Below are positions 1,872-15,712 of a DNA stretch of 42,329 bases, piece by piece. Every line of letters begins with the position of its first letter. The first letter of the stretch is position 1. The DNA is from a virus: UHGV virus genome UHGV-1357302. The stretch is one strand, 5' to 3'. A program made the position numbers and the translations under genes. The notes under the pieces are model-generated. The model ran no database searches. It was not told the origin of the DNA and was given only the letters and a program-made list of their open reading frames with translations.

Positions 1872-4800
1872 ATGATGGAACAATATTCAGTAGAAGCAAT
1901 ACTTATTGCCACTGATAAAACGTTTAGTAGCACGATGAGTAGCGCTGAGCGTTCAATGGTTGGTGTAAACAAACAATCTGGTGAACTAGGTGATGGACTG
2001 GATAAAAGTACCACTAAAGGTAATCAATTGGGTAAGTCAATTCTTAGTATTGGAGCAGGCGTGGGCGCTGTAAAATTAGTATCTACGGCCGTAAATATGG
2101 TTAAGGACTCTGTTGAAGGAGCGATTAACCGTTTTGATACGTTGAATAAATATCCTGTAGTTATGAAAGCTCTAGGTTACTCAACAGAAGATGTAGATAG
2201 ATCAATGACTAAGTTAAGTGATGGGATTGATGGGCTTCCTACATCGTTAGATGAAATCGTATCAAATACGCAACAGTTAGCAATTTCAACTGGTAGCTTG
2301 AGTAAAGGAACTGACACAGCTATTGCATTAAATGATGCCTTTCTTGCTTCTGGAGCTTCAACTGCTGATGCAACTCGTGGTATGCAACAATATATTCAAA
2401 TGCTCGGTAAGGGTGAAGTTGATATGCAGTCTTGGCGAACATTACAAGAAACAATGCCGATTGCGATGGATAAAGTTGCTAAGTCTTTCAAAGAACAAGG
2501 TGTAAACTCAGTTAACCAATTATATGATGCCTTAAAAGAAGGAGATATTACATTTAATGAGTTCAATAATCGTTTGATTGAATTGGATAAAGGTGTAGGC
2601 GGTTTTGCGGACCTAGCAAAGAAAAACTCAAAGGGTATCAAAACATCATGGGCAAATATTAAAACAGCCACCGTTAAAGGTGTAACTACAGTAATTAAAT
2701 CATTTGATGAACTATCCAAAGCAGTGACAGGAAAAAACATTGCCGAAAATTTAGATTCTTTAAAAAATGTAGTGAATATAACTTTTAAGGCAATCGATGC
2801 AGCGATTCAATCAACTATTCCATTGATGAAACTATTCGGAAAAGCTATTACGTCGGTAGGTACAGCCTTAACACCATTACTGCCAACAATTGCCAGTTTT
2901 GCTGCCACTTTTACAGCATTGAAAGTAATTCAGCAAGTGACAGGTTATATAAAACAATCTGAATTGGCAATCAAAGCTTATACAACCGCAATAAGTTTAT
3001 ACAATGGAATATCAAAACTGGCAACGTTGTCTACCACAGCACTCGGAAGAGCATGGATGTTAAACTTAGCAGCCGATAAAGCCAATTCTGCAGCAATAGC
3101 AATAAAAACTGGTCTTTTAGTGGCGCAAAATACAATCGTTGGTGTTTTGACAGGAACAATTAGTTTAGCTACAGTAGCTACAACTGTTTTTAGTACCGCT
3201 ATGAAATTGTTGATGGGCCCTATTGGTTGGGTAACAGCTGCAATAGGAGGACTAGTAGCTGTAGGGGTAAACTTGTGGAAATGGTTAAATAAGGAAACTG
3301 AATCAACTAAGGCAGTTAAAAAAGAACAAGAAAACCTTATGAAAACCACAGATGACTTGATTAAAAAGAATCAAGAACATGCACAATCCCGAAAAGATGA
3401 AGCTATTGAGTTAGAAAATACTAAAGAAAAATATAATTCAATGATTTCTGAAATGGCAACGCTCGCTGCCAAAGAGAAATTAAGTAACGGCGAGAAAAAA
3501 CGTATGACAGAAATTGTTGAAGAGTTGAACGGTAAAATGACAGGTTTAAACTTAGTTTACGATGAACAAAGTAATAAACTTTCTGAAATGCCAGGTAAAA
3601 TTCAACAACAAATGGACGCATATAGCGCATTAGATAAAGCTTCAAAAGCACAAGAAGATATCAATAAGATGTTGCAGCAAAGAAATGATAATGAAGCAAA
3701 ATTAATGGAAATCAATGCAGCTAGGGAAAAATGGAATCAGACATTAAAAGAATCTGGCGGGAATACAAAAGAAGCCCGTGAAAATATAGCTGAATTAGGT
3801 GAACAAGAAAAAGTTCTAATGGGCGTTCAAGAAGATTTGAGAAATGATATTATAAATACTGCAAAAACACATGAATCTGCAATGCAAACAGCTAGTCAAG
3901 CTGTAGCAAATGGAGTTTTAGAGCAGACGGTTTCTTACAATGCGTTAAGTGGTAAAACAAAAGAGACTATGGATGCTATGCGTGCTGAATACACTTCTCT
4001 TGAAACAAAAGTGGGTAGCGCCTTTGATGTTATTGAGCAAAAGCAGGCTATTTCAGTTGATCAGATGGCTGCTAACTTACAGAAGAACCAAGAAGCTGTT
4101 GCACAGTGGGGACAAAATATTTCAACTCTTGCAGAACGACATGTTGACCAGGGGTTATTGGAACAACTTAGAAAAATGGGTCCAGAGGGTGCAGCACAAG
4201 CAGCAGAGCTTGTTAATGCATCAGATGAACAATTACAACGCTTAAATGATGTTTATCGTAATACAGGCGAAACTTCCATGAACGCAATGAAAGAAGGTTA
4301 CCAGTTAGGTAAAAATGGTGTTAATGAGGAAATAGCAAGCTTAATCCCAACACAAAAAGATACATTAATGACACAGATTAAAAATACAAATTTTAACGAT
4401 ATTGGTAGAAGTGTTACTGAAGACTTTAAAGCAGGAATTGAGAATGGTAGAAATGCAGTAGCAGAAATGACCAAAGGAATTGTTCCACAAATGGGAACCG
4501 ATATGAAAGGTGAAGTTGAAAAAGCTAATTTCCCTGATATAGGTAAAGCTATCCCTCAAGGTCTAGAGAAAGGTATTGGAGCTAATAAACAATTACCTGT
4601 AAAAACATCTAATCAAATGATTGATGATGTTGTTTCTGGTGCCAGAAAAGGTTTAGATTCTCACTCTCCTTCTCGTGTATTTCACTCAATTGGTGAAGAT
4701 GTTGATTCTGGATTATCAAACGGTATCGAACAAAACGCAATGAATCCAGTAAGAGCTGTTGAGTCTATTGTTGATAAAATAATTTCTGCAATGGATAAAT

Positions 4801-10391: not shown

Positions 10392-10412
10392 GGATTGAAT
10401 TTTAAAATGAAG

Positions 10413-10443
10413 CCGTTTAGCAAAAAGCTAAGCGGTTTTTATT
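10413..10443 (+). terminator. rho-independent terminator between the tail fibre and the holin
   Basis: Stem ccgtttagc / gctaagcgg (9 bp, one G-U pair), loop aaaaa, then TTTTTATT. Confidence 0.5.
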
Positions 10444-10460
10444 ATTGGAAGGTGGAAAAT

Positions 10461-10865
10461 ATGGTGATTATTGATAATCAAGCGTTGATACTAGAATTTA
10501 AGAATATGATTTCTAACGGATTTATCCAAGTGTTTGTCTGGATTGTGTTAGGGGATATCTTAACAGGGTTATGTAAAGGTATTTTCATTAAGGAAGGAAA
10601 TAGCACAAAAGGATTGCTAGGACTAGTAAAACATTTATTAGTGGTCTGCTTAATAAGCGTTGCCTATCCATACTTGAAAATCATGGGTTTAGAATCAATC
10701 GCTACTGGATTTGTCTTATTTTATATAGCAGTGTATGGCATTTCCATTATTGAAAACTTAGGGCAGTTAGGCGTTCCCTTTCCTTCATGGGTTAAGGAGC
10801 ATTTAAGTAAATTAAAAGATGAAAATGATAAAGGTGGTGAACCTAAAGATGGTGCAAGTGATTAA
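10461..10865 (+). CDS. holin
   Basis: 134 aa from the ATG at 10461 (RBS GGAAGGTGGAAAATATG). It has two or three hydrophobic helices and a charged C-terminus (KDENDKGGEPKDGASD). It lies immediately upstream of, and overlaps, the endolysin gene. Confidence 0.65.
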   Translation: MVIIDNQALILEFKNMISNGFIQVFVWIVLGDILTGLCKGIFIKEGNSTKGLLGLVKHLLVVCLISVAYPYLKIMGLESIATGFVLFYIAVYGISIIENLGQLGVPFPSWVKEHLSKLKDENDKGGEPKDGASD

Positions 10866-11682
10866 TCAATCTGTTTGCGGTGGGATTGCCGGGAGACGTC
10901 CCAATGCAACGCCAAAAGGTGTTGTCATTCATAATGATGCTGGAAGTATTTATGCGACCGCTGCACAGTATGTTAATGCCTTGGCTGTAATGTCTCCTAC
11001 ACAACTGGCGAATGGTTTTGCTCATTATTATATTGATCGAAATACAATTGCACGTGTAGAAGATACATTCAATGCAGCATGGCACACAGCGAATCCAGAG
11101 GGGAATTTGAACTATGTTGGCTATGAAGTATGTCAATCAATGGGTGCTAACGATGCTGATTTCTTAGCGAATGAACAAATGACATTTAAACAAGTTGCTG
11201 AAGATATGAAGTTTTGGGGAATGTACCCTAATAGAGATACTGTAAGATTACACAAAGAATTTGTTCCTACGGCATGTCCTCACCGTTCCTGGGAATTGCA
11301 TGGAAAAGAAACAAATGCCGTAAAAGACTATTTTATTAGTCAAATAAAAAAATATATGGGCAATCCGAACGAAGGTAGTGGCAATTCAAGTAATAACAAT
11401 CAAAATAATATAAAAGGTGGAGAAACGACTATGCAATGTTTATACGAAAGACCAATTAATTCAAAAACAGGTAAACTAGAATGGAATGGAGATGCTTGGA
11501 CGGTAATGTTTTGTAACGGAGTGAATACAAGACGTGTGTCTCATCCAGATGAAATGAAAGTCATTGAGGACTTATACAAGAAAAACAATGGCAAAGATAT
11601 TCCTTTCTACGGACAAGATAAATGGAACAAAAACGCTCCTTGGTATAATCGCCTAGAAGCTATGTTTCCAGTTGTAAAATAA
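10849..11682 (+). CDS. endolysin, N-acetylmuramoyl-L-alanine amidase (Amidase_2/PGRP-type) with C-terminal cell-wall-binding region
   Basis: Start chosen at MVQVINQ (RBS AAAGGTGGTGA). The N-terminal 170 aa carry zinc-amidase features (HNDAG...H...C). A Gly/Asn-rich linker precedes a C-terminal domain. It is the last late gene and is followed by a strong terminator. Confidence 0.8.
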   Translation: MVQVINQSVCGGIAGRRPNATPKGVVIHNDAGSIYATAAQYVNALAVMSPTQLANGFAHYYIDRNTIARVEDTFNAAWHTANPEGNLNYVGYEVCQSMGANDADFLANEQMTFKQVAEDMKFWGMYPNRDTVRLHKEFVPTACPHRSWELHGKETNAVKDYFISQIKKYMGNPNEGSGNSSNNNQNNIKGGETTMQCLYERPINSKTGKLEWNGDAWTVMFCNGVNTRRVSHPDEMKVIEDLYKKNNGKDIPFYGQDKWNKNAPWYNRLEAMFPVVK

Positions 11683-11731: not shown

Positions 11732-11763
11732 AGCCACCTCCCCCAAGGTGGCTCTTTTTTTGT
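11732..11763 (+). terminator. rho-independent terminator after the endolysin
   Basis: Stem agccacct / aggtggct (8 bp), loop ccccca, then CTTTTTTTTG. Confidence 0.7.
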
Positions 11764-11989: not shown

Positions 11990-12082
11990 GGAATTGAGTG
12001 CACCCACGTTCCCCAGCAGGTGGGTTAACCTAGCGTTGGTCAGCATGGGACGGTATCCATGATTTGCACTCTTTTTTTTTAT
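11990..12082 (+). other. GC-rich structured element (two hairpins ending in T9) upstream of the moron gene
   Basis: The stretch gcacccacgttccccagcaggtgggttaacc...gcatgggacggtatccatg...gcactcttttttttt is about 58% GC in an AT-rich genome. Stems are acccac/gtgggt and catgg/ccatg. It could be an attP core, an sRNA or terminator, or a regulatory leader. Confidence 0.3.
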
Positions 12083-12109
12083 GTCTAAAATTATAGAGGA
12101 GTTGTAAAA

Positions 12110-12643
12110 ATGCCTAAAGATTTGCAGAAAACATACAACTTATTTTTATCAAATCTTGATGGCAAAATGGCTGTTATAACAACGCCATTTGTTAAACTGG
12201 ACTGTTTTTATGTAAAATTTGACATCTTACAACTCCCACATTTATTGGGTTTACACAAAATTTATAAGGATTCACCTAGAATAATTTGTCAAAAATTGAA
12301 TGATGAAGTTATTACATATAAACATCTGCAAAGGCACCGCAATTTTGGTACTATAAAAGATCGAGTAGAGCTATTTGAATTTATTCTAGAAATATTTTTA
12401 GAGGGATACAATGATTCAGTGATATATGTGTCTGAAGCAGATAAGTTTGGTTCATCTATGAAACTAGACATAGCTTTTAGCCATCCGCATAAAAATAAAA
12501 TATTAACACTTGGATTACGTGAAGTAAACGATTGTGTCTATGCACCAGTCACTTTCTACGTATCAAAGAGTAGTCGCCCAACATTTACTAAATCAAAAAG
12601 AGCAAAAATTCTAACTTTAGAGCTTATTTCATTTAATTTATAG
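12110..12643 (+). CDS. hypothetical protein (177 aa), moron
   Basis: RBS GAGGAG 8 nt upstream. I recognise no motif. It lies between the lysin terminator and the tRNA. Confidence 0.5.
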   Translation: MPKDLQKTYNLFLSNLDGKMAVITTPFVKLDCFYVKFDILQLPHLLGLHKIYKDSPRIICQKLNDEVITYKHLQRHRNFGTIKDRVELFEFILEIFLEGYNDSVIYVSEADKFGSSMKLDIAFSHPHKNKILTLGLREVNDCVYAPVTFYVSKSSRPTFTKSKRAKILTLELISFNL

Positions 12644-12667
12644 ATTAATTAATAAGTAAAGTTTCCA

Positions 12668-12741
12668 GGACCATTAGCTCAGTTGGTTAGAGCAAACGGC
12701 TCATAACCGTTCGGTCGATGGTTCGAATCCGTCATGGTCCA
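12668..12741 (+). tRNA. tRNA with CAU anticodon, elongator type (tRNA-Ile2(LAU)-like or tRNA-Met)
   Basis: Cloverleaf folded by hand. Acceptor stem GGACCAT/ATGGTCC with discriminator A. D-stem GCTC/GAGC. Anticodon stem AACGG/CCGTT with loop CTCATAA. Variable loop 5 nt. T-stem GATGG/CCGTC with loop TTCGAAT. No encoded CCA. The G1:C72 pair excludes an initiator. The anticodon stem-loop GGCUCAUAACCG and the C4/C5 acceptor bases resemble Firmicutes tRNA-Ile2. Confidence 0.8.
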
Positions 12742-12765
12742 TAACGAAAAATAAGATAAAAAATC

Positions 12766-12794
12766 TTGACAAGTCGTCTTCTATATATTAAGCT
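12766..12794 (+). promoter_or_regulatory. putative sigma-A-type promoter (TTGACA -35) for the Abi leader
   Basis: Perfect TTGACA at 12766-12771. AT-rich -10 candidates (TATATT / TATTAA) lie 12-17 nt downstream. The -10 match is weak, so the call is tentative. Confidence 0.3.
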
Positions 12795-12836
12795 ATTTGT
12801 GAAGAGAGATGTATTGGGCCAGCCAGTACACCGGAA

Positions 12837-12870
12837 AGTGTCTGGGATTTATTCCAGACACTTTTTTATT
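12837..12870 (+). terminator. intrinsic terminator-like hairpin inside the leader, 20 nt upstream of the Abi start codon
   Basis: Stem agtgtctgg / ccagacact (9 bp), loop gatttatt, then TTTTTTATTTTC. The GGAGGG RBS and ATG 12889 follow. Confidence 0.5.
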
Positions 12871-12888
12871 TTCTTTAGGAGGGAATAG

Positions 12889-13851
12889 ATGGGAATTGAA
12901 TTTAAAACCTTAGACGAACAAATAAATATATTAAAAAGTAGAGGCTTATGCTTTATAGATGAAGAGCAAAGCAAAAAATTATTAATGAGATCTAATTATT
13001 ATGATGTTGTAAACGGTTATTCTAAGCTGATACAAAGCAATACAAATAAATATATAGATAATGCAACATTTAATGAGTTATATGCAATATATATGTATGA
13101 TAAAAACATAAAAAGTATTTTTTTCAGTAAAATTGAGAAAGCTGAAGCTTTTTTACGCTCATGTATAGCTTACACTTTTGCAAAAAATCATACCGACCCA
13201 TATCCCTACTTAAATTCAAATAATTTTGGAGACAAATACTTAGAAATAGGCCCCTTGCTAGCCAAAATATCTAAAATTATAACAAATAACAAGAAGTATA
13301 AAAATAATGCGATTAAACATTATTCTGATAAATATAATGAGGTTCCCATTTGGGTACTAGTTAATTTTTTAGATTTTGGTACGTTGCGAACTTTTTATTC
13401 TTTAATGTTAGATAAAGACAAAATTGAAATTGCAGATCACGTAAATCAACATTTTAAATATGAATACGGTCTTAGTCCAAATATTGTACCTTCACAAATT
13501 GATAGTTTTCTAATTAATATTAATGATATTCGTAATATTGTTGCTCATGACAATCGATTGCTACAGTTCCGTTTAAGAAGACATGCTACAAAAAATACTG
13601 TTTTACTTTCGGATTATGAAAAAACTAGTACAGATAGCGTTTTTTATGTGTATTTAACGTTACGTTTATTTTTAACAAGAGAGCAGTTTAAAAACTTTAC
13701 AAATGCTTTGAAAAATCGGACAAGAGATTTGAATAAGAAGTTTAAACAATCGAGTAGTGATAGTAATATTAACGATATTCTTTTATCTATAGGTTTCCCG
13801 ATGGAATGGTTCGAATCCTCTTTTGACGATAGTTATCCAAAAGTTAAATAA
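12889..13851 (+). CDS. Abi_2-family (AbiD/AbiF-like) abortive-infection protein
   Basis: 320 aa. The N-terminal segment FKTLDEQINILKSRGLCFIDEEQSKKLLMRSNYYDVVNGY matches my recollection of the Abi_2 N-terminal signature (..QI.iLk.RGL......a...L...nYY.l.gY). Lys/Asn-rich and AT-rich codons suggest foreign origin. It sits in the moron position between lysin and integrase. Confidence 0.55.
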   Translation: MGIEFKTLDEQINILKSRGLCFIDEEQSKKLLMRSNYYDVVNGYSKLIQSNTNKYIDNATFNELYAIYMYDKNIKSIFFSKIEKAEAFLRSCIAYTFAKNHTDPYPYLNSNNFGDKYLEIGPLLAKISKIITNNKKYKNNAIKHYSDKYNEVPIWVLVNFLDFGTLRTFYSLMLDKDKIEIADHVNQHFKYEYGLSPNIVPSQIDSFLININDIRNIVAHDNRLLQFRLRRHATKNTVLLSDYEKTSTDSVFYVYLTLRLFLTREQFKNFTNALKNRTRDLNKKFKQSSSDSNINDILLSIGFPMEWFESSFDDSYPKVK

Positions 13852-13914
13852 TATATAAGTAAGATATAGATTCCCAACATAAAACAATTCATTAGTAATG
13901 TGCTTTCGTAAAGA

Positions 13915-13950
13915 AAGCCTCACTCCTAGATAGAGTGAGGCTTATTTTTT
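13915..13950. terminator. bidirectional rho-independent terminator after the Abi gene
   Basis: Stem aagcctcactc / gagtgaggctt (11 bp), loop ctagatag, flanked by AAAG on the 5' side and ATTTTTT on the 3' side. Confidence 0.7.
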
Positions 13951-14197
13951 ATGCACTAACCAAAGATTTCCTTACAAGCATTTTCTCAATGACAAGTTGA
14001 TTTCGTTTATTCAAATGACCATAGACAGCTAGTTCAGATTTTTCGGGTAGCATTAGTAGCGTATTTGCCAGCTCGTGTTTGGAGACGATACAGTTTATAG
14101 TTTCGTCCTGTGTTACTAATGAGAATCGAACTAGCATTTTTGGATACATACTTAACATTCTAATCTTTTCAACTACTCCTACATAATTAGTTTTCAT
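13949..14197 (-). CDS. hypothetical protein (82 aa) downstream of the integrase
   Basis: Strong RBS (AGGAGG, 7 nt) before ATG 14197 on the - strand. No recognisable motif. Confidence 0.5.
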   Translation of the reverse strand: MKTNYVGVVEKIRMLSMYPKMLVRFSLVTQDETINCIVSKHELANTLLMLPEKSELAVYGHLNKRNQLVIEKMLVRKSLVSA

Positions 14198-14317
14198 AAT
14201 ATCGGCCTCCTAGTAATATAATTATACCGAATGTATGTTCGTGTTGTCTATCGATTTGTATAAATGTAATATTTTAGGTATATAGTTTTGTTTATTAGTG
14301 TAAATAACACTATGTAC

Positions 14318-15712
14318 CTAAAATTTATATTTAATAATTACCTCATCATCAAATAGTTCTATACGTTCAACAAACTCTTTGATGATAAGGATTTTATTTT
14401 CTGTAGTTTCAGTTTCCCAATTAAAAGTTTTTAACGTTTCAAGCTTATTAATTAATGACTCACTTTTGGTACCTTCTAAGTTTGCTATATTGGCAGTTAA
14501 CGCATTTATTTCATTATCAATTTTTTTCATACGTTCATTAAGCATTGTGACATCAAATGTACCATATTGATACAAATCTAGAATTTTTTGCTTTTCATTA
14601 TGCTTCTTGGAAATTTGGTTATTAATAGTGGTGATTTTTGATTTTGTTTTATTTTCAACTTGTTTTAATTCACGTTCGATTTTTTTGAAGTCCAATGATT
14701 TAAGTGAATCTATTACTTTCTTTTCAACTACTTCTTGTCTGAGACTAGGTTGTTTGCAGTTCCAATCTTTTACTAGCGAAGGTAGCATTTTCTTTACTGA
14801 TCTACACATATAATAATTATATCGATATTTTTTGCCTCCTGATACATAACGAAATACTTTAGCTCCGCATTTACCACAATAAGTAATCCCTAATAAAAGC
14901 CCTAATTGATTTCCATGCTGTTCGCCACCTTTTTGAGCCTTTCTGGCAATAATTTCTTGAGCTTTATCGTACATAGATTTATCAATTATAGGTGTGTGAT
15001 GGCCATCATACACTTTGCCGTCCCAACTTATTTTGCCAATATATAATGGATTGGTTAAGGCATATTTTACTATGGTTAATGTTTTTACCTTATCTGGGTA
15101 TTTTGCAACCATACGTTTTGTTATATATTGCTGTCCTTTACCTTGGTTCACATATAAATCATAGATTTCTTGAATAATTTGCGCCTCGTAATCATTGATA
15201 ATTAATTCTCCATCCACATAATCGTAACCTAAGGGAACAATGCCACTTCCGTGATAGTATCCTTGTTTTGCACGTTCTGTTCTTCCCATGTGCATTCTTT
15301 CTGTAATTGTGTCTCGCTCTAATTGTGCAAAAACGGATAGCATTCCTATCGTCGCACGGCCAAAAGGTGTTGATGTGTCAAAGCTTTCTTGCATGCTGAT
15401 AAAGTCTACATTATTTTTTAGAAATACATCTTCAATTAAATACAATGTATTCTTTTGTGAACGTGAAAGCCTGTCTAATTTGTAGACTAGAACCACATCA
15501 ATTTTTTTATTTTGAATATCAGATATCATTTCTTGTAATGCAGGGCGCTCCATTTTTGCTCCTGAAAACCCTGGATCAGTATATACTTTTGCAACTGCCA
15601 TATCTTTTGCTTTTGCAAAAGCTTTTAGTTTATCTGTTTGTGCGGGAATGCTGTATCCTTCCTTGGCTTGTTCCATTGTGGATACACGTATATACAATGC
15701 TGCACGTTTCAT
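14318..15712 (-). CDS. int: large serine recombinase (phage integrase)
   Basis: 464 aa. The N-terminal resolvase catalytic domain is MKRAALYIRVSTMEQAKEGYSIPAQ with the catalytic Ser in YIRVS. A recombinase domain and a Cys-containing zinc-ribbon region (CGKCG...C..C) follow, then a C-terminal coiled coil. It sits at the edge of the lysogeny module. Confidence 0.9.
   Translation of the reverse strand: MKRAALYIRVSTMEQAKEGYSIPAQTDKLKAFAKAKDMAVAKVYTDPGFSGAKMERPALQEMISDIQNKKIDVVLVYKLDRLSRSQKNTLYLIEDVFLKNNVDFISMQESFDTSTPFGRATIGMLSVFAQLERDTITERMHMGRTERAKQGYYHGSGIVPLGYDYVDGELIINDYEAQIIQEIYDLYVNQGKGQQYITKRMVAKYPDKVKTLTIVKYALTNPLYIGKISWDGKVYDGHHTPIIDKSMYDKAQEIIARKAQKGGEQHGNQLGLLLGITYCGKCGAKVFRYVSGGKKYRYNYYMCRSVKKMLPSLVKDWNCKQPSLRQEVVEKKVIDSLKSLDFKKIERELKQVENKTKSKITTINNQISKKHNEKQKILDLYQYGTFDVTMLNERMKKIDNEINALTANIANLEGTKSESLINKLETLKTFNWETETTENKILIIKEFVERIELFDDEVIIKYKF

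Follow-up and report, generated by a model that had tools for sequence, protein, structure and literature searches.

An abi gene and its conserved leader RNA in an Enterococcus faecalis phage: a probable AbiF-type toxin-antitoxin cassette

The virus genome UHGV-1357302, a stretch of 42,329 nucleotides analyzed here at its full length (the window), belongs to a siphophage of the phiFC1/EFC-1/IME197 type, a temperate phage of Enterococcus faecalis. On its plus strand it carries abi (12889-13851), a 320-amino-acid (aa) open reading frame (ORF) preceded by a promoter, a short leader, and an intrinsic terminator. Why place a terminator between a promoter and the gene that it serves, and does Abi act without a partner? 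An earlier note, made from the letters alone, had assigned the ORF to the Abi_2 (AbiD/AbiF-type) family, had found no second protein, and had left the leader as either a small RNA (sRNA) or an attenuator or riboregulator. AbiF-type systems are type III-like toxin-antitoxins (TAs) in which a nonrepetitive upstream noncoding RNA (ncRNA) is itself the antitoxin (PMC12373285; PMC13064643), which makes the leader the likely "missing partner" of Abi. We consider it probable that the cassette is an AbiF/AbiD-type, type III-like TA defense moron, with the leader as its RNA antitoxin.

The Abi protein

Abi is an AbiF/AbiD-type HEPN protein, on the evidence of database matches, profile alignment, catalytic motif, and fold. 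The family assignment of the earlier note is borne out by Pfam, in which Abi_2 (PF07751) matches residues 31-225 at E=8.3e-39 (134.2 bits against a cut-off of 25.6, covering profile positions 2-183 of 184), and by PADLOC, which reports AbiD at 8e-53. The PHROG family phrog_2158, "abortive infection resistance protein," is matched at 7.5e-80; NCBIfam returned no match. A profile of 27 homologs aligns over its full length with PbAbiF (PDB 8VZ6_A), the only solved relative, at E=2.5e-30.

The HEPN catalytic motif R-phi-xxx-H (RNxxxH) is present as R215-N-I-V-A-H220 (13531-13548, plus strand). Residues R215, N216, and H220 are invariant among the 27 homologs and in both alignments (A1 and A2), and R215 and H220 align with R210 and H215 of the PbAbiF motif RNSCCH, which are reported as required for activity (PMC12373285). 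The AlphaFold2 (AF2) model of Abi (pLDDT 93.5, pTM 0.90) leads to the same relative: in a Foldseek search of the PDB, 8vz6_A, whose record is titled "PbAbiF dimer bound to ncRNA," was found at E=1.5e-11 (probability 1.00, TM 0.71/0.76), and nothing else was found at E<=0.001. On this fold and motif, abi is a putative ribonuclease (RNase) toxin gene. Abi-alpha of E. faecalis V583 pp6 was considered as a relative and rejected, as it belongs to another family (DUF4393).

The leader as a conserved structured RNA

What lies between the promoter and abi? The -35 element is TTGACA (12766-12771) and the -10 element TAAGCT (12789-12794), both on the plus strand, read from the sequence and spaced by 17 nt. 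The -35 had been described as perfect; this does not hold for the promoter as a whole, because the -10 is weak, keeping T1, A2, and T6 of the consensus, and a consensus promoter scan did not call it. By itself the pattern TTGACA-N17-TANNNT is not above chance in the window, where it occurs 2 times and 0.96 would be expected. What makes the promoter credible is its conservation in relatives, which were gathered as 250 loci (L numbers below) from viral, genome, and metagenome collections together with contigs of individual homologs. TTGACA(A/G)TCG stands at the equivalent position in L241, L006, L081, L248, and L251, and the -10 hexamer is TAAGCT in L241, TAGGCT in L001-5, and, at the same spacing, TACAAT, TAGAAT, or TATAAT in remoter relatives.

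A transcript from this promoter would yield a short ncRNA of ~75 nt (12801-12876, plus strand), the candidate RNA antitoxin, with a 5' end deduced from the -10 and a 3' end deduced from the U-tract. The short leader anticipated at roughly 70 nt is thus present, at about 75 nt when measured from the predicted start near 12801. It opens with a purine-rich tail, GAAGAGAGA (12801-12809), which is predicted to be single-stranded and holds a conserved AAGA(G/U)A. Hairpin 1 (HP1; 12810-12830) follows with 8 bp, UGUAUUGG / loop GCCAG / CCAGUACA, and then hairpin 2 (HP2; 12833-12866), the intrinsic terminator, with the core GUGUCUGGGA/UUCCAGACAC, 15 pairs, a UUUA loop, and a U-tract (12862-12876) that reads TTTTTTATTTTCTTT after the hairpin. 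The ribosome-binding site (RBS), AGGAGGG (12877-12883), lies 5 nt upstream of the ATG, and its AGGAG is kept in relatives. Since the T-tract is continuous with the RBS, the distance from the end of HP2 is ~11 nt to the RBS and 22 nt to the ATG; the strong hairpin previously placed at 12837-12870, 20 nt before the RBS, is real, and its position and spacing are corrected accordingly. All of these elements are on the plus strand, as is the terminator that closes the abi unit (13915-13943), an 11-bp hairpin followed by ATTTTTTAT.

The terminator scan that detected HP2 found 5 terminator-like sites in 2.8 kb against 1.0 expected. Folding of 12795-12880 gives -34.4 kcal/mol (z = -6.3), a stability reached by none of 200 shuffles, with mean pair probabilities of 0.92 for HP1 and 0.94 for HP2. 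A 40-aa ORF with a TTG start (12766-12888) overlaps the leader; it was treated as spurious because its start is the -35 hexamer and it has no RBS.

The same leader accompanies abi throughout a subfamily of at least 40% identity, drawn from E. faecalis, Lactococcus, Pseudolactococcus, and metagenomes. At every one of these loci TTGACA is followed after 16-17 nt by TAnnnT and, 15-17 nt further on, by the 8-bp HP1, with the AAGA(G/U)A-bearing purine tail on its 5' side; a linker of 2-5 nt, HP2 with its U-tract, the RBS, and the ATG complete the layout. The stems of HP1 vary in sequence yet always pair: besides that of the window, we find UUCAUGG/CCUGUGAA, UUCACAAU/AUUGUGGA, GUUAUAUG/CAUAUAAC, and GGUAUGCG/CGUGUAUC. 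In a MAFFT alignment of 10 sequences, made without fitting to a structure, each of the 8 pairs forms in all 10 sequences (100% of cells), and 7 of the 8 show compensatory changes on both sides. When the partner columns are slid by 1-3 positions, pairing falls to 27-55% of cells, and the covariation score was reached by 0/500 shuffles. Most members share the HP1 loop consensus G-Y-C-W-G, and the tail columns A-G-A-.-A are invariant (alignment A3). Folded alone, each leader forms HP1 and an equivalent of HP2, and in most relatives the independent minimum free energy (MFE) folds leave the tail unpaired.

A covariance model of this RNA (R1) has one match in the 42-kb window, at 12798-12882 (71.4 bits, E=7e-15), and in 22 relatives every match lies just before abi, on its coding strand. 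Remoter Abi_2 loci give weak matches (20-32 bits) at the equivalent position. The earlier proposal that the promoter-leader-terminator unit belongs to abi is therefore upheld, as a conserved structured small RNA.

Is this arrangement an accident of the source phage? We scanned 169 distinct Abi_2 upstream regions (168 for the promoter), with random windows from the same loci as controls. A terminator-like hairpin lies at most 70 nt (median 21 nt) before the abi start at 154/169 loci, against 34/507 control windows (7%), and a strong sigma-70-type promoter lies 40-200 nt upstream at 131/168 loci, against 24/504 controls (5%), the median distance from -10 to ATG being 79 nt. By this enrichment, the order promoter, hairpin RNA, terminator, RBS, abi is a property of the protein family.

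The unit is also an autonomous cassette. In L241, an E. faecalis prophage whose Abi is 76% identical, window positions 12758-13829 align with 2869-3941 at 77% as one block, and relative to a tRNA and an 82-aa ORF this block is inverted, on the opposite side of the tRNA. Promoter, leader, and ORF thus move as a single unit. The conserved block begins 8 nt upstream of the -35, so that with its downstream terminator the cassette spans 12758-13943 (plus strand). IME197-like phages share the longer segment 12662-14278 at 96-98%. The compared loci share no conserved protein partner, since their flanking genes differ, in agreement with the earlier note.

Three variants were seen in passing. In L007, L244, and L245 (Lactococcus) a TGcTATAAT extended -10 lies ~20 nt upstream of the abi ATG and the Shine-Dalgarno (SD) sequence is absent, which suggests a second promoter and a leaderless abi mRNA. 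At the lactococcal loci L243, L246, and L248, a gene of the HTH_3/HTH_19 (XRE) type lies upstream of the cassette, 600-1300 nt before abi; the E. faecalis loci lack it, and its product may repress the prophage or regulate locally. On the metagenome contig L228 (1501-1683), homology to abi ends at window position 13071 and only residues 1-61 are matched; the toxin gene appears disrupted or truncated behind an intact tRNA and leader.

How the leader may act

Because the anatomy of the cassette matches that of published AbiF systems, the same mechanism is probable. In the Clostridioides difficile prophage phi027, a SigA promoter drives the ncRNA RCd22, whose terminator lies directly before the abiF RBS; RCd22 reduces abiF expression in cis, and in trans it binds and neutralizes the HEPN toxin (PMC12373285). 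That system has the order promoter, ncRNA, terminator, RBS, abiF, at a prophage site beside the lysis genes (PMC12373285). RCd22-AbiFCd (phi027/phiC2; Saunier et al. 2025, PMC12373285) and the window cassette are alike in being prophage-borne and lysis-adjacent, and both run from a SigA-type promoter through a short ncRNA and a Rho-independent terminator to an RBS and an Abi_2 HEPN toxin bearing R-phi-xxx-H, the proteins being ~30% identical. They differ in that RCd22 contains two copies of the Rfam abiF motif, whereas the window RNA has none and consists of a single perfect 8-bp hairpin with a purine tail; moreover, the window abi lies downstream of the lysin near attP, whereas AbiFCd lies between holin and endolysin. 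PbAbiF has been solved bound to its upstream ncRNA, AbiFr, with the HEPN site blocked (as summarized in PMC12737573 and PMC13064643). PbAbiF-AbiFr (8VZ6; Zilberzwige-Tal et al. 2025) shares with the window full-length homology, fold, catalytic R/H, and an upstream cis-encoded ncRNA.

Lactococcal AbiD1, AbiF, and AbiD-like require an upstream promoter and terminator for activity, and they resemble the window in Pfam family, in being single-gene Abi systems, and in having a short upstream region with a strong promoter and a terminator (PMC11381338). They differ in being plasmid-borne and are too remote for plasmid tblastn matches at E<=1e-10. The lactococcal proteins are also longer, at 342-366 aa. 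Classical type III TAs (ToxIN, AbiQ, CptIN, TenpIN) likewise have an RNase toxin neutralized by an upstream RNA, with the intervening terminator setting the ratio. The window cassette is not one of them: Tandem Repeats Finder (TRF) and a direct-repeat search detected no tandem or direct repeats in 12600-12890, as the earlier note had judged for ToxI-like repeats, and the toxin is HEPN rather than of the ToxN/AbiQ fold. Its layout is that of AbiF type III-like TAs, in which a conserved structured ncRNA is encoded immediately before the toxin gene, on the strand of that gene, with a promoter of its own and, ahead of the RBS, a terminator. CRISPR-Cas13 (type VI) also has a HEPN RNase controlled by a bound hairpin RNA, and AbiF is its proposed ancestor; in contrast, the window has no array, spacers, or guide function, Abi would be a single-HEPN dimer, and the Foldseek matches to Cas13 are not significant (E>1).

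By analogy with these systems we infer RNA abundance, RNA-protein binding, toxicity, and phage exclusion. Transcription from the sigma-70 promoter (12766-12794) would mostly end at HP2 and give an abundant ncRNA of ~75 nt, composed of the 5' AAGAGAGA tail, HP1, and HP2, while rare read-through would give the abi mRNA, with its RBS straight after the U-tract. Abi, presumably a dimeric HEPN RNase, would be bound and neutralized by the excess ncRNA, as in RCd22-AbiFCd and PbAbiF-AbiFr. A superinfecting phage that halts host transcription, degrades RNA, or brings a trigger could cause the labile RNA to be lost or displaced; the freed RNase would then arrest the cell and abort the infection. The same logic could stabilize the prophage.

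Is a role in trans needed at all? The leader might be a purely cis-acting brake, whose terminator, lying between promoter and RBS, lowers transcription of a toxic gene while the short RNA never binds Abi. Premature termination alone countered toxicity for RCd22 under laboratory conditions (PMC12373285), and the missing Rfam abiF motif is in keeping with such a brake. A terminator alone would suffice for this, yet conservation extends to HP1, which shows compensatory changes, to its G-Y-C-W-G loop, and to the AAGA(G/U)A tail, and every characterized relative also uses its RNA in trans. We therefore regard a pure brake as unlikely.

A terminator in a 5' leader also recalls a riboswitch-like attenuator, with terminator and antiterminator folds exchanged by a signal, and signal-induced read-through has been speculated by Saunier et al. 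(PMC12373285). No mutually exclusive structures were found in the window and five relatives, where the nascent RNA forms HP1 free of the 5' arm of HP2; the complementarity between the 3' arm of HP1 and the 5' arm of HP2 amounts to just 4 bp and is not conserved, and no Rfam riboswitch matches the leader. With no alternative fold, a signal-switching attenuator is not supported and has very little probability; of the two roles proposed in the earlier note, the sRNA fits best.

Control might instead be mainly translational, as for lactococcal AbiD1, a precedent summarized in PMC13064643: a protein of the infecting phage would bind a structured 5' region of the read-through mRNA and activate Abi translation, possibly alongside an RNA antitoxin. 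For the window and for L241, the MFE folds do pair the 5' tail with UUUUCUUU, after the terminator and just before the RBS. We do not claim this pairing as functional, because it is of low complexity and most relatives are not predicted to form it. The SD AGGAGG stays unpaired. We know of no trigger protein for this Abi subfamily, and translation as the main level of control seems to us as improbable as the attenuator.

Hardly tenable, finally, is the idea that HP2 is merely the terminator of the upstream tRNA(CAT)/PBECR4 unit and unrelated to abi: the tRNA ends at 12741 with no other terminator before HP2, yet leader and hairpin accompany abi homologs that have no upstream tRNA (L250, L006, L081, L248, L251, L164, L007), tRNA-bearing phages without abi (H7-H11) lack the leader, and the L241 cassette is inverted relative to the tRNA, so the promoter belongs to abi. 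HP2 may also stop read-through from the tRNA.

Among these possibilities, the best fit is a terminator that acts constitutively and leaks some read-through, as in type III TAs, and the RNA antitoxin remains our preferred role for the leader. Several points weigh against it. The -10 of the window copy (TAAGCT) is weak, making RNA abundance uncertain. The covariation is based on ~10 related sequences, and HP2 aligns imperfectly, with 78% of cells paired in the covariance-model alignment, as its stems vary in length and register; because the MAFFT and covariance-model alignments are partly out of register, we draw the support for HP2 from the independent folds and the family-wide scan. Abi is only ~19% identical to PbAbiF, which comes from another phylum, and no equivalent of the single-stranded bulge (C32/U38) reported to block the PbAbiF active site is obvious in the window RNA. 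In addition, the Rfam abiF RNA, RF03085, has no match in 12740-12900 at E<=10.

Does the last point speak against an antitoxin or against the model? RF03085 describes a hairpin with an AAGC...GC-UCAAAU internal loop, and as a positive control it detects two copies in phiC2, at 37.6 and 19.5 bits. At the gathering threshold (GA) it matches 0/20 related loci, the L041 leader is also without a match, and a regular expression for its core motif matches 0/169 related upstream regions. The RNAs of this Abi_2 branch are therefore other hairpins, including the tail-HP1 type seen here and, in remoter members, hairpins with a C-UACG-G-like apex. The leader should not be filed under RF03085; it is an RNA class absent from Rfam and a modest twist on the known AbiF system. 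Sub-threshold Rfam matches to RsaF (27 bits, GA 60), SQ1002 (19 bits, GA 128), and ncr1015 were rejected as memberships and look driven by a generic shape of hairpin plus U-tract. A bolder reading, which we hold to be a long shot, is that the tail-HP1-terminator RNA represents a structurally distinct, uncurated class of AbiF antitoxin, in which the single-stranded AAGA(G/U)A tail or the G-Y-C-W-G loop, and not an abiF-motif bulge, would inhibit the HEPN site.

The cassette would be a fairly ordinary further example of the described AbiF RNA-antitoxin systems, a prophage-borne HEPN toxin with a cis-encoded RNA antitoxin. It would extend a paradigm so far characterized only in C. difficile and a Prevotellaceae bacterium to temperate phages of E. 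faecalis and to Lactococcus relatives. The Rfam abiF model does not reach beyond one branch of the family, and since the branch studied here has a different hairpin RNA, motif-based annotation misses the antitoxin and mislabels such loci as single-gene Abi systems. An abi ORF taken without its leader is likely to be unclonable or inactive, and therapeutic phages may be held back where E. faecalis prophages carry cassettes of this kind.

The moron slot and the neighboring tRNA

Why is the cassette found where it is? The holin (10395-10865) and the endolysin (10819-11682), which has its own terminator at 11732-11753, are followed on the plus strand by a PBECR4-nuclease ORF (12110-12643, 177 aa), a tRNA with anticodon CAT (12668-12741), and the promoter-leader-abi unit (12766-13851) with its terminator; on the minus strand lie an 82-aa ORF (13949-14197) and a large serine integrase (14318-15712). 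Homology to the annotated phiFC1 record (AF124258) places the attP core of the phiFC1-type serine integrase at ~14298-14300, just beyond the integrase stop codon. In the prophage the abi unit would therefore lie at the lysis-proximal end beside attR, the classical moron slot, as had been proposed from the sequence. Phage EFC-1 fills the equivalent slot with a TIR-domain gene, and it is this context, beside attP, that suggests an abortive-infection defense role for the cassette. At 27.1% G+C, the abi ORF lies below the window as a whole (35%), as would fit a recent arrival from an AT-richer source.

The PBECR4 ORF, whose domain is a phage Barnase-EndoU-ColicinE5/D-RelE-like nuclease (Pfam 5.7e-10; phrog_3446 3e-65), has a promoter-like site of its own at 12063-12091. 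It is a separate moron, missing in L004 and L162, where the end of the lysin (11759) abuts the tRNA (12667). The 82-aa ORF between abi and attP has no assigned function and matches phrog_15227 at 8e-56. It is kept beside the integrase in IME197, EFC-1, and phiFC1-like phages, is found in L241 at 67% nucleotide identity, and could be a recombination directionality factor.

The tRNA recurs beside abi. In three contexts the distance between a tRNA(CAT) and the abi start is 147-159 nt: the window clade (tRNA to abi start, 12668-12889), L241, with the tRNA inverted (2766-3001), and L047 (2762-2986). The last is an unrelated locus of holin, GH25 lysin, tRNA, and Abi_2, at 31% identity, with the same ~148-nt spacing as in the window. 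The recurrent tRNA is probably a shared landmark for moron insertion downstream of lysis genes. The window tRNA was called Met(CAT) and has C4:G69 and C5:G68, pairs that we take to be TilS determinants of tRNA-Ile2; it is probably a tRNA-Ile2, and Enterococcus phage 4995_1 has a near-identical counterpart of the L047 tRNA, annotated as tRNA-Ile. Still more speculatively than the distinct antitoxin class raised above, tRNA(CAT) may be functionally tied to the cassette, in that it could support translation of the ATA-rich abi or replace a tRNA cleaved by the RNase. ATA codons number 37.5 per 1000 in abi and 39.5 in the PBECR4 ORF, against 15.2 in the long ORFs of this phage.

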